A stretch of DNA of 64,000 nt from Escherichia phage FV3. Every line of letters starts with the position of its first letter. Position 1 is the stretch's first letter. The stretch lies in the sequence record NC_019517.1; one strand, written 5' to 3'. This document shows positions 6,745 to 60,097 of this stretch, in pieces. The position numbers and the translations under genes were made by a program. The notes under the pieces were generated by a model that saw only the letters and a list, made by a program, of their open reading frames with translations, did not search any database and had not been told where the DNA came from.

Positions 6745-7734
6745 ATGAATCTTGAAAAATATTATACACCAGAAGAGTTAGAGCGCCTGCTCAAAAAATA
6801 TAGACGCAAACAAAATAATGCACGGAAACGAGATATAGAGTTCAACCTGTCATGGGAAGAATACCTCCTATTTGGTAAAAAACTTTTAGGAGAGGGGGTG
6901 TGCGACTATACCCTTATACCTTTTGACATGCACACAGATGAAAACGGGTTGGGGAATCCTTTCTATCCATCCTTAGAGCGGATAGATGATGAAGGTCCTT
7001 ATGCGGTTGATAATTGTTGTGTGGTGGGATTGAGATGCAACTCTCTAAAGGACTGTCTGGTAGATAAAAAGACCGCAGTCTTGATTAAAGACAAAACTGA
7101 TCGAAAAATTGTCCAGCAGATGATGCTCCACCTGAGCGAAGAGCGCATGGAGAAATTGAAAGGTGATTACACTTTTGAAGATTTCATCTTGCAATACGGA
7201 ACGGAAGAGGATAAACTAGCACTCTTTGACGAAGAATGGGAGGAAGATATGTCACCAATGCAGGATTTTAAAAACTTCATGGCTAATCGTGGAGCCAACA
7301 AGCACATTTCTGACATTGTAAACGAGACTGTAGCAGAGGAGAATGAAGAAATGGCGCAACAGGCTTACGAAGAGGAAAAAGAGCCTCAGGGGGTCGAAGA
7401 AGGGCTTACAGAAGAGGTTCCTGCACTGCCTGACGATGTTGAGATTGCCAAAGCTTACACTTTCTATTGCCAGACGTTCTACGATGCAGGTATGAAAGTT
7501 GATCTGTCATTCAGTCAGTTTAAGAGCACGTATATTCGAAAATGTTGTGCTTTAACTGGTGAGCGTCTCGGGACCGGACTTAAACCACTATTAGTGACCG
7601 ATTGGAATAAAGGTTTCACCAAAGGTAACTTTATGGTAGTATCTCCAATTATGGAAAAGGCTATGACAGACCTTATGAAGACCACCCGCATGACAATGAC
7701 CGAGTTGGCTGGTATTTTCAAGCACGTTAAATAA
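6745..7734 (+). CDS. Hypothetical protein with endonuclease VII / HNH-like Zn-finger nuclease-fold motif
   Basis: Start set at ATG 6745 downstream of the promoter. Motif CDYT...HTDEN...ERIDDEGPY...NCCVVGLRCNSLK resembles T4 EndoVII HLDHDHELNGP...VRGLLCNLCN, but the catalytic His positions are not conserved; acidic middle region. Confidence 0.4.
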   Translation: MNLEKYYTPEELERLLKKYRRKQNNARKRDIEFNLSWEEYLLFGKKLLGEGVCDYTLIPFDMHTDENGLGNPFYPSLERIDDEGPYAVDNCCVVGLRCNSLKDCLVDKKTAVLIKDKTDRKIVQQMMLHLSEERMEKLKGDYTFEDFILQYGTEEDKLALFDEEWEEDMSPMQDFKNFMANRGANKHISDIVNETVAEENEEMAQQAYEEEKEPQGVEEGLTEEVPALPDDVEIAKAYTFYCQTFYDAGMKVDLSFSQFKSTYIRKCCALTGERLGTGLKPLLVTDWNKGFTKGNFMVVSPIMEKAMTDLMKTTRMTMTELAGIFKHVK

Positions 7735-7766
7735 TGACAGGGGCCAAGGCCCCTTCTGGAGTTTTA

Positions 7767-9227
7767 ATGGATAGCAGAAGTTCAGAAATCATTGCCGCAC
7801 AAAAAGATGACGCCTTGCGAATGCTGCAGGCAGCACGTATGTATCTTCTTGAAAAACTGCCGTTTTATGGCACACTGTTGTCAGGGTTGCAGTTCGTAGA
7901 AAACCACACATGGTGCTCCACCATGGCAACAGACCATAAACGCATTTATTACAGCCCTGAGTTCATTATGGGATTGGCGGATGAGCGCAAAACCATTCTT
8001 AAAGCATCTTTGACTGACAAGCAGTTTGAGATGGCTGAGGTTTTCTATTCCCCAAAATCTGTGAAAGAGGTGGCATTTCTTCTATCGCATGAGGTGGGGC
8101 ATATTATCTGTGATCATCTGGTCCGTGGCAAAAGTTTTGAGCCGGAGCTGTTCAATATTGCCTGTGATCATGTTATCAACACAGGTCTTGTGGTTGACTT
8201 TAGCAAGCCCCCTTGTGTTTTCTTCCCGAAGGGGAAAAGCACTACGTTTGTAAAAGGTAAGCCTTTTGGCTTCTTAGCTAGTTGCTACTGTGACATGAGG
8301 TTCCATGGATGGATTGCTGAGAACGTCTATGCGGTTCTTGATAAGCAAAGAGATCAGAATAGCGGTAAAAGTAAGAACGGTAAAGGCGAGAACTCTCAAG
8401 GAGATAAACGACAAACCGACGATCACATGAGTGGTAACGGTGGCACTAGTGATGATCTTGGAAAGGCGATGGGGTATGATCAGCCACAACCAGTGATCAG
8501 CCAATCTGATAAGGATCAAGCCATGCAGGACTCTGGTGACATGTTGGAAGCAGCAATGCAGGCTTCCGGAGGTCGTTGCCCTGAGGCTGTGCGTGAGTTT
8601 GTCAAGAACAGAGGTAAGCCTGTAATCAATTATATAGACATCATTAAACAACGTATGCTGTCTAAACGAAAGGCTGAACTAACCTATAGAAAACCCGGTC
8701 GCCGATCTGGGTCTTTGACCAGCACAATGCGAAAAGTTGGAGCTATAAACAAGAATCAGCACGTTGTTGTTCCTGGTCGTAATCCGGAAAACACTATAGA
8801 TATTGTGGTGGCTTTAGACGTTTCTGGATCGATCTCACAAAGAACTTTAAAGAAAATGTTCAATGAGATCACTGGGTTGTGCAATCTGTATAAAGAGTTC
8901 AAGGTTACGATGTTCTGTTGGTCAACTGAGGTTGGAGAGGTTAAAGTATACACTCGCGGGAACATCGACGAGATGATCAACTACGAGGTCCACTCAACAT
9001 GGGGCACAACAGCCGCTTGCGTGTTCGAGTATCTGGACGCTAACATACCAAATGCAAAAGATGTCATCGTCCTGACCGACCTCTACTTTGAGCACAACTT
9101 TGAACAAAAGGTTGTTGACAACAAGTGGAAAAAGTACGATACTTTATGGGTTCTCACCGAAGGGTATAATAAAAATTATATCCCAAGCTTTGGGAAAACT
9201 GTAGAATTGATCGAGTACGCTAAATAA
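7767..9227 (+). CDS. Putative metallopeptidase (HExxH) domain + von Willebrand factor A domain protein (DUF2201/CobT-like MoxR partner)
   Basis: HEVGHIICDH zinc-peptidase-like motif in N-terminal half; MIDAS motif DVSGSIS in C-terminal half; start set at ATG 7767 with GGAG RBS (alternative ATG at 7734). Confidence 0.65.
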   Translation: MDSRSSEIIAAQKDDALRMLQAARMYLLEKLPFYGTLLSGLQFVENHTWCSTMATDHKRIYYSPEFIMGLADERKTILKASLTDKQFEMAEVFYSPKSVKEVAFLLSHEVGHIICDHLVRGKSFEPELFNIACDHVINTGLVVDFSKPPCVFFPKGKSTTFVKGKPFGFLASCYCDMRFHGWIAENVYAVLDKQRDQNSGKSKNGKGENSQGDKRQTDDHMSGNGGTSDDLGKAMGYDQPQPVISQSDKDQAMQDSGDMLEAAMQASGGRCPEAVREFVKNRGKPVINYIDIIKQRMLSKRKAELTYRKPGRRSGSLTSTMRKVGAINKNQHVVVPGRNPENTIDIVVALDVSGSISQRTLKKMFNEITGLCNLYKEFKVTMFCWSTEVGEVKVYTRGNIDEMINYEVHSTWGTTAACVFEYLDANIPNAKDVIVLTDLYFEHNFEQKVVDNKWKKYDTLWVLTEGYNKNYIPSFGKTVELIEYAK

Positions 9228-9242
9228 GAGAGGATGTTATTT

Positions 9243-9503
9243 ATGGCAACAGAAGTAGTAATTAAAGCTGAACGCCCAGTTAAAAAAGCTATCAACACGT
9301 TCCCTGTAGGAACCATTGTGAGCATGATTACAGAGTCAGGTCGTGTATCTACACTGCTAATCGTGAAATCTGCATGCTCATCTTGTGTGTGGGCATATGA
9401 TCTTGACGAGAAAGAACTGAAAGATTTTGTTGGAGAACTGAAAGCAACAGAGCTTGACGCTCGTATTGAAGTATTTGGTGAAACCATGGAGGAAGAGCAA
9501 TGA
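9243..9503 (+). CDS. Small hypothetical protein, paralog 1 of tandem triplet
   Basis: GAGAGGA RBS; shares pattern F-x-x-G-x-(I/V)-V ... C ... D ... EI with the next two genes. Confidence 0.45.
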   Translation: MATEVVIKAERPVKKAINTFPVGTIVSMITESGRVSTLLIVKSACSSCVWAYDLDEKELKDFVGELKATELDARIEVFGETMEEEQ

Positions 9504-9763
9504 CCACAAAAATCACCATTGCAGAGCCGAAAGCTAACACGCAGCCTATCGAAAAGTTTAAATGCGGTGAGGTAGTAACATTCACACCGGACAATGAAGA
9601 TGCTAAGATTTTCGCCATGGTCACAGCCGAGTGGATGTGTGACAACACCACACAGGTTCTGCGTTTTGACACCTATCTTACAGATGAAATAAGGAACGAC
9701 AAGATCGTGACTGGTGTAGATACTGAGATTGTTTTCTACAAGAGCTTCGTAGAGGGTTTCTAA
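9500..9763 (+). CDS. Small hypothetical protein, paralog 2 of tandem triplet
   Basis: ATGA overlap with upstream gene; similar size and motif pattern. Confidence 0.45.
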   Translation: MTTKITIAEPKANTQPIEKFKCGEVVTFTPDNEDAKIFAMVTAEWMCDNTTQVLRFDTYLTDEIRNDKIVTGVDTEIVFYKSFVEGF

Positions 9764-9764
9764 T

Positions 9765-10001
9765 ATGGCAAGAATTCGTAAGTTGTCCAACAATCAAACT
9801 GTGAAAGATTTTGAACCCGGAGAGATTCTGTATGTTCATGATGCAGATGACGAAGGAGAAGATCTTGTTATGCTACTAGGGCATGCTGCTGAGGACGGAT
9901 GCATCCAGGCTGTTTTTCTTGAAACAGCTATGGTGCACTGGATAGAGCTGGACCTGAAAGCACGAAAACCTAAAGCAGAGATCTTGATTTACGAAGATTA
10001 A
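9765..10001 (+). CDS. Small hypothetical protein, paralog 3 of tandem triplet
   Basis: 1-nt spacer to upstream gene; similar size and motif pattern. Confidence 0.45.
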   Translation: MARIRKLSNNQTVKDFEPGEILYVHDADDEGEDLVMLLGHAAEDGCIQAVFLETAMVHWIELDLKARKPKAEILIYED

Positions 10002-10069
10002 CAAAAGGAGAGAGCTGTGTTGAGCAAACGTGAATGCGACAGCATTAGCCTGAATTCTTATAAGAAACA

Positions 10070-10465
10070 ATGGTTTGGGGTAGAAGTTTGCCGACTACGG
10101 CTCGGCTCCTACCTGAACTTCGTTTATACGAGAGCGATAGTCGTATCGTTTCTTATGAAGTGTTTTACACTAAGAACACCTTCGAGCTGCGACGTAAGGT
10201 GGATGGCGGGAGAGCTACCACCCAGAATAATTGGGAAACTATTCTGCCTCCAGATGTTATAGGAAGCCCCTTGAATGTATCTGAAGATGAAAATCTTATG
10301 GTTCATGCTATGATGGGACTTGACAGCTTAGAGCTGGCGATCTATGATATGTCTATCGAAGCAGTTAAACTGGACTACATAGAAAACACCTTAGAGGAAG
10401 GTATCAAGAAGTTTCTCGGTGAGAAATTGAAAGCCCACTTTCATAAGGAGCTATACCTGTTATGA
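10070..10465 (+). CDS. Hypothetical protein (131 aa); start uncertain
   Basis: Protein-like composition and ATGA coupling to the next gene; weak RBS, and a strong RBS+GTG at 10017 lies in another frame. Confidence 0.4.
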   Translation: MVWGRSLPTTARLLPELRLYESDSRIVSYEVFYTKNTFELRRKVDGGRATTQNNWETILPPDVIGSPLNVSEDENLMVHAMMGLDSLELAIYDMSIEAVKLDYIENTLEEGIKKFLGEKLKAHFHKELYLL

Positions 10466-10707
10466 AGACCCGTAAAGAACGTAACAAGATTTTACCTGGC
10501 GCTCTCGAACACATGATGAAGTGCAGATCTATCTGGCACTCTGCCAAGGAGGGGCAGCATGTGGTTGTAGTTAGTGATAATGCCAACCCATTCGGTGATT
10601 ATGTCACCATGATGACTCCATATATCAGCGACGGTGTTGTGGAAGTGGTTCCTTATAGCGGTCTGCATGAGAGGCATTTTGAAAGCACTTTGTTAGTGGA
10701 GCTATAA
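10462..10707 (+). CDS. Hypothetical protein (81 aa)
   Basis: ORF with ATGA overlap to upstream gene. Confidence 0.4.
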   Translation: MKTRKERNKILPGALEHMMKCRSIWHSAKEGQHVVVVSDNANPFGDYVTMMTPYISDGVVEVVPYSGLHERHFESTLLVEL

Positions 10708-12683: not shown

Positions 12684-12787
12684 TCGATTTTAAGGCCTCT
12701 TTTGAGGCCTGTGCCTTCAATAGTTCCACCATCCCTTGTGATTACACCCACCTTTCCAAAAACTTCCCTAAAACGCTTAAAAATGTT

Positions 12788-12817
12788 GTTGACAGCGCAT
12801 ACCTTGGTTTGCTATTC
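12788..12817 (+). promoter_or_regulatory. Candidate internal sigma70-like promoter (TTGACA-N18-TATTCT)
   Basis: TTGACA at 12788-12793, TATTCT at 12812-12817, upstream of GGAG RBS and the ATG at 12851. Confidence 0.35.
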
Positions 12818-12850
12818 TCATTATCACAGATACAGAACGGAGTAACAAAA

Positions 12851-13108
12851 ATGTCACTACGAAAGTTAACAGATAATTGTAAAGCTGTACAAGTATCTCC
12901 TTGTGGTTGGGACGTGATTGCAAACGATGAAAAAATCGGTGAGGTTATTGATCACACATACTCATCATTGGCAGACCACACTGATCAGTTGTGGGAAGGC
13001 GTAAACTGTAAAAATAATACTAAACGGTTCAAGACTATGGACGAAGCCATTTGTTTTGTCTACACCCACGCTTCTAATATTCAGGGAAACGGAAAATGGC
13101 ACATGTAA
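12851..13108 (+). CDS. Hypothetical protein (85 aa)
   Basis: Start trimmed from the track ORF 12605-13108 to the ATG with GGAG RBS downstream of the candidate promoter. Confidence 0.4.
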   Translation: MSLRKLTDNCKAVQVSPCGWDVIANDEKIGEVIDHTYSSLADHTDQLWEGVNCKNNTKRFKTMDEAICFVYTHASNIQGNGKWHM

Positions 13109-13425
13109 ATATTAAACTACATTATCATGGTAGAAAACCAAAATATCCAATGCATAAAGTATTTTGGGGGTTGCATATCCAAGAAAAAGAAGGTATTGGT
13201 TATTGGTTTTGTGACCACGATCAACAGTGGCATACCCATGAAGAAGTAAGCACTATGATGGAGCAGGGTATTAAATTTAATTACTCAAACTATGATCATG
13301 GTGTTAATTGCATTCGAAAATTGAAACGATTTCTTAGAAAGAATCCTAAACTTAAAGGGCTTACATTCTTTATGTCTCATAACTACATGGGGTATAGTGC
13401 TACTGTAACTGCAAGGATTAAGTAA
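13096..13425 (+). CDS. Hypothetical protein (109 aa)
   Basis: ORF overlapping upstream gene end. Confidence 0.4.
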   Translation: MAHVNIKLHYHGRKPKYPMHKVFWGLHIQEKEGIGYWFCDHDQQWHTHEEVSTMMEQGIKFNYSNYDHGVNCIRKLKRFLRKNPKLKGLTFFMSHNYMGYSATVTARIK

Positions 13426-13426
13426 T

Positions 13427-13804
13427 ATGAGCAAAGTAAAATTTGTTAGATTTAAAAATCCTAACGGAATAACAGCCCTTATGATGGGTGTACACTTTAC
13501 ACCAGGAAAAGAGTATGAGGCAGATGTATACAATGGGATAGATGGTAAAGTTGGGGTAGGTGTGTGGACAAACCTCGGAGAAAGATATTTCCTCAAAGAT
13601 ATCACAGATCACTTGTGGGGTATGTGGGAATTGGTGGGAGAAGAGAATAAATCCCTTCCCAAAGAGATTTGGGTGCACACCTTCCACACAGGAAAGTTTG
13701 GTGGAACGGAGCATAAATCTATCCACTATGATGAAGGAAGTGCCATCAAACAACAAGCTGTGCTTGGTGGATCTATAGAAAAATTTGTTAAATGCGAGGA
13801 CTGA
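13427..13804 (+). CDS. Hypothetical protein (125 aa)
   Basis: ORF in operon context. Confidence 0.4.
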   Translation: MSKVKFVRFKNPNGITALMMGVHFTPGKEYEADVYNGIDGKVGVGVWTNLGERYFLKDITDHLWGMWELVGEENKSLPKEIWVHTFHTGKFGGTEHKSIHYDEGSAIKQQAVLGGSIEKFVKCED

Positions 13805-17000: not shown

Positions 17001-19688
17001 TCTTGCCTGTCGATCAGCATATCCCGGTTGGTTAAACCACTGATTGCAAGAATAGTCCCGCATATAGTCATAATCAGAGTATTTGTTTGCATCCTCGTTC
17101 CAACACAAGTTCAGGTTGGTGCCGCCCATGCACACAATATATTCTTCAACGTATTTATCACTTCTGGTGGGAATACCTACGAACCATCTATTAACAGGTT
17201 CGTTCCAAGCAGTACGCTCATCCTTAACGCAGATTGCAATCCAGTCATGTGTCCCTGTTTTCTTGCACACATCGCGCTTCATACCGTAGTAGAATTCTTT
17301 AGTATTTGGCTCAGGTGCACTTATCAGGTAACTCCACGCCTGGTCTGCATATGTTCCGTTGGTGCGAGGGTCATGATCAAAGGCATACATGATGATTCTT
17401 TCCCCACCAAGATGTTCACCAAGGGTGACTTTGATGTTCACATCTCCGTAACCGTTGCGAACAACATCCATATTATCAATAGAAATGCCTCTAGGAGTGT
17501 AGGCAATTTTCAGTGAGTTATCCTCACTAGTGCCACCAAGGGTGATCCCAATATTGTTTGTCGTCCCGTCAGCATATCTTACTGTGGCTTCCCAGCGTAT
17601 TCCGAAATATCCTACGTCATGGCTGACAATTTTTAATGTACGAGCACCAGAGTTAGGTTTTCCAGGATCAGGCCAAGGGTTTGGGTGTTCGTGAACAGTC
17701 AACGATGTCCCGTTTTGTTCGTTGACCTGCAACATTTTACCACCCCTTCCGTTTGGGTTGAACTCCCATAGGGCCTGTGTCTGCACCAAGTTATCATAGG
17801 TATTCCGTCGCTGATTATAAATCTCTTGGGTAACATCATAAGTTACTGATCCAGCATCCATTCTATGGAGTCTGACCATATACGATGTATCCCCTTCTAC
17901 TGCAGGCTGGGCCGCATTTAGTCCAAAGTATACAGTGTCATTAACATGGAACTGTTTGTTTCTACCGACAGTATGCCATTTACCATCAGACGGATACGCC
18001 GGAACAATAGTGTTCCAGTTCAAAGTCCTTGTTGTGTGGGTCCTGCCTGTGCCATGTTTGTCATGATAGGTTATTTTTACAGAGTACAGGCCACGTCTGT
18101 TAACATTCCTGTTATACTGGGTAACAATAACTTCGTTGGCCCCACCGTGGTTCCAGTTAGTAGAGAATTGGTAATTTGCATCTGTAACAACCGTACCTGC
18201 AGCATTTACCAGTTCAATCTTGTCAATAATGAACGTAGCACCCTCTGGCTGAGGCTTTAATTTCATCTTGACCGTATCACCAATGTAAATATTGCTAACG
18301 CTGCTAACACCGTTAACGTCGAAAATATCATCAACACCCCAACTGTCTACTGGGACATTTTTATACCAATTCTCAGGGACCTCCGTGAACCCTTGGCTAT
18401 TAAGTCTGCCGCCAAACAGGTTATTAGATCCTGCAAAACTTCCCCTCGGGATGCCTGACCACCAAAGTTTGCCATTAACAACAGTAAAGGTTCCTAAAAA
18501 ACCTTCTCTGTGAATGCCTTGGAAATAAACACTTTCTGTCCAGCTAACTGGGAGGCGTTGCTCAACGTATTTGGCTGTGGCAAGAGCTTGATAGTGGATA
18601 AAATTGGCCCTAGGGCTATTGTTTGCAGATTGTGCGCCAATATCATTGCAAAGGTTGCGAGAGAATCCACGGTACTGCTTAGTACCATTGTTGAAGAAAA
18701 TGCCACTTGTGCCGTACCCACGAGCCATTATTACCTCATGGGTGTAGGTGATATTCAAGGCACGCCATGTATCATCTCCCCAAACATCTTGCCCGTAGAA
18801 TACGTTAACAAGTTGCTGGTCATCAGGTCTGTGCATTCTTTGTGTTACAACCACTGCCCCGTTCGGACCGCACATGAACCCTTTCCACTCCTCATCTGTA
18901 GGAATGCCCCTCAAATCGTCACGGGTAATCTGAGCAGGGGGCCAAACGAGAGTGTTTCTACTATTGTTTCTCAGAAAGTCATATCCAGCAATCCAGAAAC
19001 CTCTAGGACCACCGAAAATAACAGAGTTATCATGCACCTCACAGTTAATGCTTGGGTTTTTCCAAGGACCTGTTTCAGGATTTTCCGATGTTTCACCAAT
19101 CTTTACAGGGGTTGCATGCTGGTTTTTATCCACATGCAAAGATCCGTAGGTGTTGTTACCAGATCCGTACAGGTGTAAAATGCCAGTGCCTTCTGCCTCT
19201 GCCATAACCCAGACGGTGTTGTTAATACCACCCATCACCTCAACAAGGCGCTCTGGGTGGGTGTCAAGGTGCAATCCTTTAACGATTTGTTCAGGAAGAG
19301 GTGTCCACTCCCTTACACAAACATCATTACCGCCTGCAGCATCAGACCCAATAAGCCCTGCAGTACAGCCGATGTAGAAAAACTGATTATCAAAAGTTCG
19401 GATCACAAACGCACGGTCTGCTCTCCACACATGATCAACGTTCCAGGCAGCCTCATTAGGGTAGTTTATCGTGTCAAGATCCCCAGTCCTACACTCCCCG
19501 AACCTGTTGTACCCTGTGATATTAAGCTGACCATTGTCAAAAAGTATAGCTAAGCTATTTACATAGGCTACTGTAGTGCTTGTACCGTCACTGTTGTCTA
19601 TTGGGTATGACAGAACAGCAAGTTCCTTAACTCCACCCCTCTTATCGAGGAAATGACGACCAAGTTTTAGCAAAGGGATTGGAAGCAT
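14055..19688 (-). CDS. Giant tail-associated protein (1877 aa) with RCC1-like repeats and a Big_2 Ig-like domain; putative receptor-binding protein or depolymerase
   Basis: N-terminal YGSGNNTYGSLH-type repeats; C-terminal Big_2-like segment SSNTNIATVDATTGLVTFKAPGNVTITFVATDDAGRK; distal gene of the late operon. Confidence 0.55.
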   Translation of the reverse strand: MLPIPLLKLGRHFLDKRGGVKELAVLSYPIDNSDGTSTTVAYVNSLAILFDNGQLNITGYNRFGECRTGDLDTINYPNEAAWNVDHVWRADRAFVIRTFDNQFFYIGCTAGLIGSDAAGGNDVCVREWTPLPEQIVKGLHLDTHPERLVEVMGGINNTVWVMAEAEGTGILHLYGSGNNTYGSLHVDKNQHATPVKIGETSENPETGPWKNPSINCEVHDNSVIFGGPRGFWIAGYDFLRNNSRNTLVWPPAQITRDDLRGIPTDEEWKGFMCGPNGAVVVTQRMHRPDDQQLVNVFYGQDVWGDDTWRALNITYTHEVIMARGYGTSGIFFNNGTKQYRGFSRNLCNDIGAQSANNSPRANFIHYQALATAKYVEQRLPVSWTESVYFQGIHREGFLGTFTVVNGKLWWSGIPRGSFAGSNNLFGGRLNSQGFTEVPENWYKNVPVDSWGVDDIFDVNGVSSVSNIYIGDTVKMKLKPQPEGATFIIDKIELVNAAGTVVTDANYQFSTNWNHGGANEVIVTQYNRNVNRRGLYSVKITYHDKHGTGRTHTTRTLNWNTIVPAYPSDGKWHTVGRNKQFHVNDTVYFGLNAAQPAVEGDTSYMVRLHRMDAGSVTYDVTQEIYNQRRNTYDNLVQTQALWEFNPNGRGGKMLQVNEQNGTSLTVHEHPNPWPDPGKPNSGARTLKIVSHDVGYFGIRWEATVRYADGTTNNIGITLGGTSEDNSLKIAYTPRGISIDNMDVVRNGYGDVNIKVTLGEHLGGERIIMYAFDHDPRTNGTYADQAWSYLISAPEPNTKEFYYGMKRDVCKKTGTHDWIAICVKDERTAWNEPVNRWFVGIPTRSDKYVEEYIVCMGGTNLNLCWNEDANKYSDYDYMRDYSCNQWFNQPGYADRQARVNPAIFTDTHVFLLKQANEVQTFKNNYDPNKWFYNCSGAIFWGPGELPDSGSCFEAATYGSDYIMGQVKKYKMIPGPETLGNAVDPYINFAAIHANMDGGRYPFVVPLTWGYKRVVMIIKCDLIGKQVLAENGTSTHPFEVALHYQFADSPYAGDKRISDTDSKRCKKVLLGAGWWWYEFDLTDKFTDDTKTLTGIRLDLGENMHKSVCDGTYGDPTVYLKYVSLEHREEDVYGPKLRLFGSWIAKDRVGMGKKVRGFLIDAGTEDMLVNAVWPELPGTQWNNSAKSINWYNIHRAMWTTNCYLWRELNDQAFGFSNGRRMAIICWTTLQRCYDHDYEIGGRAWKDIRDRIIYNFADDNGGGAYNFGTSRLIHLNGSPAYKKEGYSGSMIEWGYVKDTRVLMGQQLAAAIGPNAVQSVKPAWFDIPIWSSGTPGTAAINPTTGDLEISWEDLKQVGGWDKTGYQVQWWRSDGSLAADEFVKDNFYTMSSAKAQQLFGQATPSTITMSMSCKDNRTGALGPRVAKVFSGIKWNLPVQSVSWKQIGDNKLLVTPACQFNATLNVDPAVAANSARASDFSVSNTAMADVRKIDTLNARITCKNTYGTFQIINNFTDVDSKVVRTASQTMQLGTLAYSALITEQSPTLQGGGVGKLITTPVWKPNEWVVFDLTVDFSSDNNWTWVRNCLSQLMGGPNSISDSHDSTDPSVFQVGKTHPETGAQLPDRKYALVCISNGKADVTFSGTHTYNGTYNFSKKYSLKAGNIVDEVGALYNPGNGIGIVGGKLQMQEPSITPSNVPGIRKTWESSNTNIATVDATTGLVTFKAPGNVTITFVATDDAGRKTSSTSFTVKQMTPQWRMWIGTATNGAYPNPAGTSGMKTFSTSKPMEYGSGPKVGQMVYFGAYIPEIIGLPRSQLQLLFGAGVDDLATFGYSDNIEAARSSGWVGFRMESGKEGRILGTASIGVMFPGDQQYRLEAYATFSR

Positions 19689-55426: not shown

Positions 55427-56404
55427 TTATTTGGTAGATTCTGCACGTGCACGAGCAAGTGCTTTTGCAACGTTTTCAGCAAGAATTTCTTCTGCGGATT
55501 TCGCAATATCATCCACAACAGGTTCGCCATCATTACCATGTTCAGTGGTGGCAAACTCTTCTTTGGTTTTATGCACCTCTGCTTCCAGCTCTTCAATTTT
55601 GGCTTGAGCTTTCTCCAGCATAGCTACGATAGGTTCGTTAGCTTTTTCCAGCATGAAGTCAACCAGGGTTGCGTGATCTTCTTCACCAACAAAGCTTAAA
55701 GCTTGAGCCTTAGTCAGCATTTTAGCTTTTTCAACTTCAACCTGGGCCTTGATGATTTCTTCAGCTTTACTCTGGGTTGCTTTCAGCTCTTCTACTTGCT
55801 TCAGCAGATCCAGATACTCTTTAGTTTTGGTTACGTCCACCGGATTCTCCTCGGTATTTGCGGATTTTGCAACATCATCCACCTCGGTAGTTTTATCCAC
55901 CTCAGCAGGTTCCTGTACCGCCTTGATCAGGTTCCCTTCTTTATCGAAGAGATCAGCGGTTACTTGTTCAAAAATCTGTTGTGTTTTTAACAGGCTGTAC
56001 TGATCTGCCACACTAAGCTGCTTGCCTTCTTTTGCAGCTTTATGAATGGTCACGTTATCACAACGCTCTTCCAGCCATGCAATACAAGACTCTGCGTCAG
56101 CTTGCGCCCATTCCCAATCAGGATGCTCTTTAGCCCAAGCCTCCTCTTCAATCTCAAAACCAAGCATGTGTGCAAGTGCTTTAGCATCATCATACCACAT
56201 ATCGAAGAAACGACGCAGGTATTCTTCAAAACTAAGCTCCACAGTAACTTGGCGAAGTGCCTTAACAATATCGTCTGTTAACTGCTCAGGCTTAAGATCA
56301 CTCTTCATCAAAAGAGATACAGGCCTGTTGTTAGCGCTATAGCCTTGCGCCTTATGGCACAGGGCAATCCCCTTCTCTTTAATAGTAATCGTTTTTTCAG
56401 ACAT
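55427..56404 (-). CDS. Putative scaffolding protein (325 aa)
   Basis: Acidic, coiled-coil-rich (many EELK/AKAE heptads); between portal and capsid. Confidence 0.5.
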   Translation of the reverse strand: MSEKTITIKEKGIALCHKAQGYSANNRPVSLLMKSDLKPEQLTDDIVKALRQVTVELSFEEYLRRFFDMWYDDAKALAHMLGFEIEEEAWAKEHPDWEWAQADAESCIAWLEERCDNVTIHKAAKEGKQLSVADQYSLLKTQQIFEQVTADLFDKEGNLIKAVQEPAEVDKTTEVDDVAKSANTEENPVDVTKTKEYLDLLKQVEELKATQSKAEEIIKAQVEVEKAKMLTKAQALSFVGEEDHATLVDFMLEKANEPIVAMLEKAQAKIEELEAEVHKTKEEFATTEHGNDGEPVVDDIAKSAEEILAENVAKALARARAESTK

Positions 56405-58549: not shown

Positions 58550-60097
58550 TTAGATAAAACGCTTGAACATAGAAGGTGATGAGATTGATGGAATCACACA
58601 AGGAAGTGCTACCTCCTCTTTCTCCAGGAAATTAATCGCAGAAGCTACACAGTCGGCCCAATCGTCTTTTCTGTTAAATGTTGATCTTTCCCCGTTGAAT
58701 TTTTCAAGTTCAGTCAGAAATGCTTCCAGAGTATCAGGATGGAAACTGGATTTTACAATCCTCACCATTCCTTGTTGGGCAAGATTGGCAAAAGGTGAGA
58801 ACCTTGTCAGTTTAGATTTGTTGGAAGGCATTGGGTCTTCTTCAACCCTAAACCCTTCGGCAAGCAAGGATCTGGAGGAGGTTAAGAACTCACTCTTACC
58901 TGCCTGACCGGGGTCCACAGAGAATACGATTATACAATCATCACCATCAAACTGCGCCTGTTTCCTGATGATCACATCTCGTTCACCAGCCTTTTTACAG
59001 AACTTGCCTTCCAGACCTGTGGAATACCTCCCGTCATCCACGTTCTCAGGACAATAATCCCCGGACAGGTAATAAAAGCCGTCGCTATCTTTACTTACCT
59101 TAACACTGGCGGTAAAGTCAGGAAATTTATTACCGGAAGTTCTCTCGGTTCCTGCTTTATCCCATGCCCTGCAAGACACTGATCCAAGGGGCACTCTATC
59201 GGCATCACGAAGGAAAGATCTTTGAAAATAGTTTGCACCCTCAGGCTTTGCAAACCAGTTACCATGGAGAAGCTGAGCTTTTTCAAGCTCGGGCAGACCT
59301 TCAAGGAAAGCAAGGTATTCTGGGTTGTCTCTTAAGCAGACAGGATTATCGAAGATTGTTGCGCCTATAAACGAGAATGACAACGGTCTCGGCTTGATCT
59401 CTACACCCAGTCCGTTAACCGTGGTGTATTTCTCTATCAACTCTTCTTTAGAGTCTCCCCAGATAAATTCACCGTCGCGTCGGATAAAATATCTTTTCTT
59501 ACCGCATTTCTCCGGATCTGGATACCCTTCATCGTCCAACCACCACCTAACCAGTTTGGCAAGCATGTGTTCTGAATCGGGGTTACAGCTGATAACCATT
59601 CTTGATGGATACTTTGACTGAGATCTCAGACGAGACATCAGATAGTCTATCTGCTCCCATTCGAACTGCGTGCCCTCATCGAAGCAAACCATGGTATACT
59701 CAAGCCCTTGATGGTTAAGCTTATCTTGTACATACTCCATGTGGCAGTATTTTACAACAGCTCCCTTTTTGCTTCTATCCCACTTGCCAGTGTTCGGATC
59801 AAACCGTGGAAAAATGAACTTATGATCCTTCTCTCTGAACTTTGGCTTAATGTTTTCAGGCAGATCACTATAAATAGCTACTGCTTTAGGCCATAGTCCA
59901 CCCTCACCTTCCAACTGTGGGGTTGTTCTTCGGAACATAACCACAGAGCTGTGGGGGTCATCAATAATTTTAAGTGGCATCAGCTGCAAGAGGAACGACT
60001 TGCCAGACCCTGCGGCACCGCCGATTACCAAAATATCTGCATCGTTTTCGAGGATCATCTTCTGCTTTTCAGAACACGGTCCGTAAATCTTAGACAT
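58550..60097 (-). CDS. terL: Terminase large subunit
   Basis: Walker A VIGGAAGSGKS near the N-terminus; 515 aa; followed by portal. Confidence 0.75.
   Translation of the reverse strand: MSKIYGPCSEKQKMILENDADILVIGGAAGSGKSFLLQLMPLKIIDDPHSSVVMFRRTTPQLEGEGGLWPKAVAIYSDLPENIKPKFREKDHKFIFPRFDPNTGKWDRSKKGAVVKYCHMEYVQDKLNHQGLEYTMVCFDEGTQFEWEQIDYLMSRLRSQSKYPSRMVISCNPDSEHMLAKLVRWWLDDEGYPDPEKCGKKRYFIRRDGEFIWGDSKEELIEKYTTVNGLGVEIKPRPLSFSFIGATIFDNPVCLRDNPEYLAFLEGLPELEKAQLLHGNWFAKPEGANYFQRSFLRDADRVPLGSVSCRAWDKAGTERTSGNKFPDFTASVKVSKDSDGFYYLSGDYCPENVDDGRYSTGLEGKFCKKAGERDVIIRKQAQFDGDDCIIVFSVDPGQAGKSEFLTSSRSLLAEGFRVEEDPMPSNKSKLTRFSPFANLAQQGMVRIVKSSFHPDTLEAFLTELEKFNGERSTFNRKDDWADCVASAINFLEKEEVALPCVIPSISSPSMFKRFI

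Follow-up and report, generated by a model that had tools for sequence, protein, structure and literature searches.

In Escherichia phage FV3, a strong ribosome-binding site leads into a GTG codon in one reading frame and a protein-like open reading frame (ORF) begins shortly downstream in another, which raises the question of what this locus encodes. The original prediction offered a leader peptide with translational coupling, a recoding event or simply a mis-called start. The window, i.e., the whole stretch of 64,000 nucleotides (64 kb) of the FV3 record NC_019517.1 that was analysed, contains these elements as that prediction described them. The motif AAGGAGAG at 10005-10012 (+) stands 4 nt upstream of GTG 10017, with a 6-nt spacer (AGAGCT) between its AAGGAG and the GTG, and the frame opened there runs for 81 codons to the stop TAG 10260-10262. 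The second ORF, in the -1 frame with respect to the GTG, runs from ATG 10070 through 131 codons to TGA 10463-10465. This stop overlaps the ATG of the next gene (ATGA) as it does in the relatives. The two frames overlap from 10070 to 10262. As had also been noted, the 131-codon ORF has no obvious ribosome-binding site, and TTCTTATAAGAAACA, directly before its ATG, contains no GGAG-like or other Shine-Dalgarno motif. AAGGAG occurs 38 times in the 64-kb window against 37.2 expected and is not enriched, so the motif alone is at chance level; AAGGAGAG gains its significance from its position, in the 15-nt intergenic gap between the stop of the upstream gene (TAA 9999-10001) and GTG 10017 and at an ideal spacing, and from being conserved in every relative examined.

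The 131-aa ORF is an exact match to the annotated FV3_00016 (AEZ65152.1 / YP_007006187.1, 'tail protein' in RefSeq), which identifies the window as the first 64 kb of this phage (vB_EcoM_FV3), an rV5-like myovirus of the genus Vequintavirus. In a public protein collection this form is found on a single contig, the FV3 record itself, and the exact 81-aa product of the GTG frame is absent from a collection of 15 billion proteins. The two-frame layout is almost certainly an ordinary frameshift, in which a conserved gene of 149 residues is split by a missing T in the FV3 record only, with no leader peptide, coupling or recoding; nothing contradicts this reading. The features of the locus are as follows.

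10005-10012, + strand: Shine-Dalgarno sequence AAGGAGAG of the rv5_gp017 orthologue, assigned from position and conservation.
10017-10019, + strand: authentic GTG start codon, the annotated start in rV5, slur16, ECP32 and SYGMH1.
10017-10127, + strand: native codons 1-37 (VLSKRECDSISLNSYKKQWFGVEVCRLRLGSYLNFVY) in the GTG frame, identical to the N-terminus of intact homologues.
10070-10126, + strand: out-of-frame head of the 131-aa ORF, 19 codons (MVWGRSLPTTARLLPELRL) with no ribosome-binding site, not native protein.
10127-10128, + strand: position of the 1-nt deletion, where GTTTATTACGAG has lost one T, from the alignments and the indel census.
10127-10465, + strand: native codons 38-149 plus TGA (YESDSRIVSYEV...KELYLL) in the ATG frame, matching residues 38-149 of the rv5_gp017 homologues.
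10128-10262, + strand: the 81-codon ORF beyond the deletion, 44 out-of-frame codons and the TAG, not native protein.
10445-10707, + strand: downstream gene, the rv5_gp018 orthologue, with ATG 10462 and its own AAGGAG at 10445-10450.

The related phages carry one uninterrupted gene at this position. A 2.1-kb stretch around the locus has matches in 116 phage records (80-97% identity). Almost all are rV5-like myoviruses of E. coli in the genus Vequintavirus, and members of this genus are the closest, at 92-97%. In rV5 (rv5_gp017, 10005-10454), slur16, ECP32 and SYGMH1 a single 450-nt CDS encoding 149 aa begins at the same GTG, is preceded by the same AAGGAGAG and has the same stop overlapping the ATG of the next gene. 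The Shine-Dalgarno sequence is kept in YP-6, slur16, ECP32 and rV5 as well as in a divergent lineage (L017/L019). The unbroken translation of the relatives, VLSKRECDSISLNSYKKQWFGVEVCRLRLGSYLNFVYYESDSRIVSYEV..., corresponds to residues 1-37 of the FV3 GTG frame followed by the ATG frame from residue 20. A 41-aa peptide spanning the junction is uninterrupted in all 114 phage records that match it (with at least 99% identity in 109), and the 149-aa query aligns from 1 to 149 in one piece in all 48 close records, an even sample down the match ranking. Among the matches listed from a database of 5.8 billion protein clusters, 118 of 120 homologues are 148-150 aa long. Identity to a 68-nt DNA query over the site reaches at most 97.1% in any record, and all matches listed span 69 nt. 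None of the 114 rV5-like records in the phage collection shares the deletion, which these searches identify as private to the FV3 record. The deletion-bearing 17-mer CTTCGTTTATACGAGAG was also sought in IMG/VR; its six matches there were rejected, all being chance matches of 17-18 nt with dissimilar flanks. The original prediction had proposed a comparison with related phages and held that a conventional start for the 131-aa protein together with an unconserved GTG frame would count against it. The comparison gives the opposite picture: it is the GTG start and its frame that the homologues conserve, and the head of the ATG frame is not conserved as coding sequence.

Several other features of these relatives deserve mention. 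The intact gp017 homologue has been left unannotated in YP-6 (L001 1303-1764), VB-EcoM-WM, phita32 and SophiaRose, probably owing to its GTG start. Sixteen records (MG0656xx) named 'Campylobacter phage', with Campylobacter jejuni as host, share about 92% identity across the region with these rV5-like phages of E. coli, an odd host assignment for genomes so nearly identical. An ENA metagenome scaffold (SIRA22-1 scaffold_352, L020 797-2078) contains a tandem partial duplication of the locus in the order 149-aa gp017 homologue, 81-aa gp018 homologue, a 111-aa copy with a different N-terminus (P0119, MWLTTQE...) and another 81-aa gene.

Nucleotide alignments place the difference at a single base. 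The relatives read GTTTATTACGAG and FV3 reads GTTTATACGAG, with one T fewer in FV3 at T10127; the lost base belongs to a TT pair and lies outside any long homopolymer. With one T missing at 10127/10128 a single gene appears as two overlapping ORFs. Its first half lies in the GTG frame, as codons 1-37, and its second half in the ATG frame, as codons 20-131. T10127 is used doubly: in the GTG frame it completes the codon of Tyr37 (TAT), and in the ATG frame it opens that of Tyr38 (TAC). It follows that the 44 codons of 10128-10262 and the 19 codons of 10070-10126 are out of frame and not protein. Both frames look partly 'protein-like' because the one-base deletion falls inside one conserved gene. 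Ribosomes initiating at GTG 10017 would translate 37 native codons and then 44 out-of-frame codons before stopping at TAG 10260, and FV3_00016 (131 aa) consists of 19 out-of-frame codons joined to 112 native C-terminal codons behind an ATG without a ribosome-binding site. The peptide LSKRECDSISLNSYK would come from the GTG-start N-terminus (N-terminal sequence LSKRECDSISL...) and MVWGRSLPTTAR from the out-of-frame head of the ATG 10070 ORF. The 81-codon product, with 11 Leu and 5 Cys in 81 residues, had been called low-complexity and Cys/Leu-rich. This was overstated: the last 44 residues are indeed odd, being out of frame, and this tail (TRAIVVSF...CLQML) has no counterpart in any homologue, but the first 37 are a native and highly conserved N-terminus.

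The pattern of substitutions distinguishes the two frames. In a comparison of nine sequences, including the lineage L017-L019 that is only 61% identical in protein, 16 sites are variable in nucleotides 1-111 of the gene and 13 of these are third codon positions of the GTG frame. In the part where the frames overlap none of 13 variable sites falls at a third position of the ATG frame. Synonymous and non-synonymous codon differences number 32:5 in the GTG frame and 2:19 in the ATG frame. Judged by these substitutions, the GTG frame is the conserved coding frame and the head of the 131-aa ORF is non-coding. GTG 10017 is the true start and ATG 10070 is not a genuine one. The suggestion of a mis-called start was thus correct about ATG 10070 but missed the cause, the one-base deletion at 10127/10128. 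The first 110 nt are extremely conserved, even in the lineage that is 61% identical in protein, and were considered as a possible nucleotide-level element. A mosaic block explains them better, since 9496-10095 is 82-97% identical and the following sequence 48-75%, and the substitutions lie almost all at third codon positions. Aligning window 9496-10600 with 2483-3599 of L017, from the divergent lineage of Logan assemblies, places a mosaic boundary inside the gene and near the deletion site; in this alignment the drop in identity from about 10100 onward looks like a recombination junction.

A coding frame that is cut in two could still yield the 149-aa protein if programmed -1 (or +2) ribosomal frameshifting or transcriptional slippage occurred near 10127. 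The overlap of the frames from 10070 to 10262 would permit this, a -1 shift exactly at UAU-ACG would rebuild the native Tyr-Tyr junction, and the junction peptide LGSYLNFVYYESDSR (...NFVYYESDSR...) is obtainable from the T-less DNA by frameshifting alone. However, neither an X_XXY_YYZ heptamer nor a homopolymer of at least 5 nt is present anywhere in 10017-10262, and the 100 nt spanning the deletion (10116-10215) fold at -25 kcal/mol, which is no stimulatory structure when compared with shuffled sequences (z = -0.68). Under standard decoding rules tRNA-Tyr on UAU cannot re-pair on UUA, which also counts against frameshifting. Genuine recoding sites are conserved; the frameshift-type layout with two frames is found in one record only, and all 114 relatives are single-frame. 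The recoding event of the original prediction thus finds no frameshift signal at this site and is very improbable. A mixed case is equally improbable, in which the deletion is genuine and some full-length protein arises by inefficient, non-canonical -1 slippage at GUU-UAU-ACG, or the 81-aa product has acquired a function.

Regulation of the 131-aa ORF by the GTG ORF, acting as a leader or upstream ORF or through translational coupling, is suggested at first sight by a strong Shine-Dalgarno sequence on the upstream frame and none at the downstream ATG. Its probability is close to nil. The 81-codon ORF ends at 10262, 190 nt beyond ATG 10070, which makes termination-reinitiation there impossible; codons 1-19 of the ATG frame show the substitutions of non-coding sequence (2:19, with no variation at position 3); and the would-be leader is in all relatives the N-terminus of the same protein, the leader-like layout being absent from 114 of 114. 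FV3_00016 might also be a functional gene whose internal start at ATG 10070 gives a protein with an altered N-terminus. It is the deposited annotation, and its 131 aa keep 112 native residues out of 149, with all three C-terminal helices among them. Yet its ATG has no ribosome-binding site, the predicted sheet is left without strand 1 and without most of strand 2, and the arrangement is private to one record, so a working internal start is also highly unlikely. The preferred reading remains the ordinary frameshift within a conserved gene. Initiation of the next gene at ATG 10462 would not need to depend on the broken gene because it has its own AAGGAG at 10445-10450.

A frameshift confined to one record may be a mutation of the phage or an error of the sequence. 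An indel census set the whole 64 kb against YP-6, rV5 and SYGMH1. Just three frame-changing indels distinguish the window from every one of these relatives, at 7748 and about 10003, both intergenic, and at 10127. The indel at about 10003 affects the A-run before the ribosome-binding site and is natural variation, since the divergent lineage has the same four-A form. No other conserved CDS is broken in the window alone among these three relatives, and by this census the assembly is not riddled with frameshifts. The deletion changes TT to T and not a long homopolymer, which makes a typical homopolymer read error slightly less likely; the deletion recurs in no independent assembly. Isolated one-base frameshifts also occur in other records of the group, at gp012/gp013 of rV5 and in an Ig-like gene of YP-6. 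A genuine null allele and a sequencing error are about equally likely. If the deletion is real, FV3 would carry a null allele and the gene would be dispensable for plaque growth; if it is an error, FV3 would make the normal 149-aa protein. There is about an even chance that the deletion is genuine and simply shows the conserved rv5_gp017 to be dispensable for laboratory growth.

The other indels in the group have features of their own. rV5 splits a DUF2201/VWA metallopeptidase-like gene into the overlapping gp012 and gp013 through a 1-nt indel at about window position 9016 (window 7734-9227 was compared with 1-713 of record L004 and 7756-9217 of rV5). The same gene is one ORF of about 487 aa in the window (7734-9227), YP-6, slur16, SYGMH1 and L017. 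A GC-rich hairpin lies at 7740-7755, between the Srd-like gene and the DUF2201 gene. Its loop carries the window-specific 1-nt deletion at 7748, where the window reads GGGGCCAA-GGCCCC and YP-6, rV5 and SYGMH1 read GGGGCCAATGGCCCC; as a result of this deletion a 497-aa ORF extends upstream to ATG 7734. The annotated start of the DUF2201 gene in YP-6 (record position 56031) maps by alignment to about window position 7767. At 18496, inside the large gene with Ig-like domains, the window has A6 and YP-6 has A7. This gene is annotated as two CDSs in YP-6 and as one in rV5 (gp027, 5637 nt) and SYGMH1, and the YP-6 record may be the frameshifted one here.

The FV3 product, when the missing base is restored, is 94-98% identical to rv5_gp017 (YP_002003519.1) and its Vequintavirus orthologues. 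It matches PHROG 6790 ('tail protein') with E = 8.7e-58, residues 10-147 aligning to profile positions 2-132 of 132, and has no match to a Pfam family. The gene is flanked by the gp016 and gp018 orthologues and has the start and stop of its relatives; an intact single ORF of about 149 codons is not found in FV3, where the 1-nt deletion splits the gene. When 1.84 billion representative proteins were searched exhaustively without a profile, just one further relative was added. Relatives at 23-33% identity were found by tblastn in Salmonella, Cronobacter and Enterobacter phages. The AlphaFold2 model of an intact homologue (pLDDT 79.7, pTM 0.78) has disordered residues 1-17, a five-stranded antiparallel sheet at residues 20-77 and three helices at 90-148. 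In this model the break interrupts a predicted beta-strand (residues 30-40), so neither fragment of the FV3 gene should fold. Protein 215 of Salmonella phage PVP-SE1 (G3BM81; Foldseek E = 1.4e-7, TM 0.70) and A0A6B9J9Y8 of Erwinia phage Hena1 (E = 1.3e-4, TM 0.64) match the fold; both are distant (14-25% identity), uncharacterised proteins and give no functional lead.

The same protein is labelled 'tail protein' or 'holin' in other records. The 'tail protein' label of PHROG 6790 and RefSeq is unsupported: neither presence in the virion nor a characterised tail component related by homology or fold was found. The virion proteins named for rV5 do not include gp17, which also goes unmentioned in the rV5 proteomics paper and its accessible supplements. 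The gene belongs to the plus-strand block of small genes that runs from promoter P11 and the Srd-like anti-sigma-factor gene, outside the morphogenesis block. The 'holin' label (SYGMH1, JLBYU08) is likewise unsupported: the protein has no transmembrane helix, its maximum Kyte-Doolittle hydropathy over 19 residues is 0.99, and the fold predicted by the model is a soluble one of sheet plus helices. Gene order and promoter P11 in the rV5 annotation suggest that the block is probably expressed early, and the best guess is an early, accessory, cytoplasmic protein.

rv5_gp017 is an already known conserved hypothetical gene and no new mechanism is involved. The consequence is one of annotation only: FV3_00016 and the BFVD model H6W7T7 describe a frameshift remnant with a false N-terminus of 19 residues, and the FV3 record ought to be given a corrected 149-aa CDS or else a pseudogene flag. 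If real, the deletion would be a natural knock-out showing that the conserved rv5_gp017 is not essential for plaque formation. When a single genome has a strong ribosome-binding site in one frame and a protein-like ORF in another, close relatives should be aligned before recoding is invoked.

Elsewhere in the window, rV5 and YP-6 have an insertion of about 980 nt at 59353/59355 that is absent from the window and from SYGMH1, and rV5 has a further one of about 320 nt at 59665/59673. Both sit where rV5 annotates a large terminase subunit in three pieces interrupted by an HNH endonuclease (gp065/gp066). Positions 12720-13567, a variable segment at the end of the plus-strand block of small genes, give no megablast alignment with YP-6, rV5 or SYGMH1; in places the segment is 93-98% identical to the divergent lineage L017.

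The FV3 locus bears some likeness to programmed -1 frameshift sites such as the A_AAA_AAG of dnaX and the G/GT slippery sites of tail chaperones. These also have two overlapping frames, the downstream one being -1 and without its own ribosome-binding site. However, the known sites have a slippery heptamer, a stimulatory structure and a conserved two-frame layout, and the FV3 locus has none of the three; it is outside this class in mechanism and in membership. With the rv5_gp017 orthologues the FV3 gene shares the same locus, Shine-Dalgarno sequence, GTG start and a stop overlapping the next gene, and it is a disrupted member of this orthologue group (PHROG 6790) or a record error.
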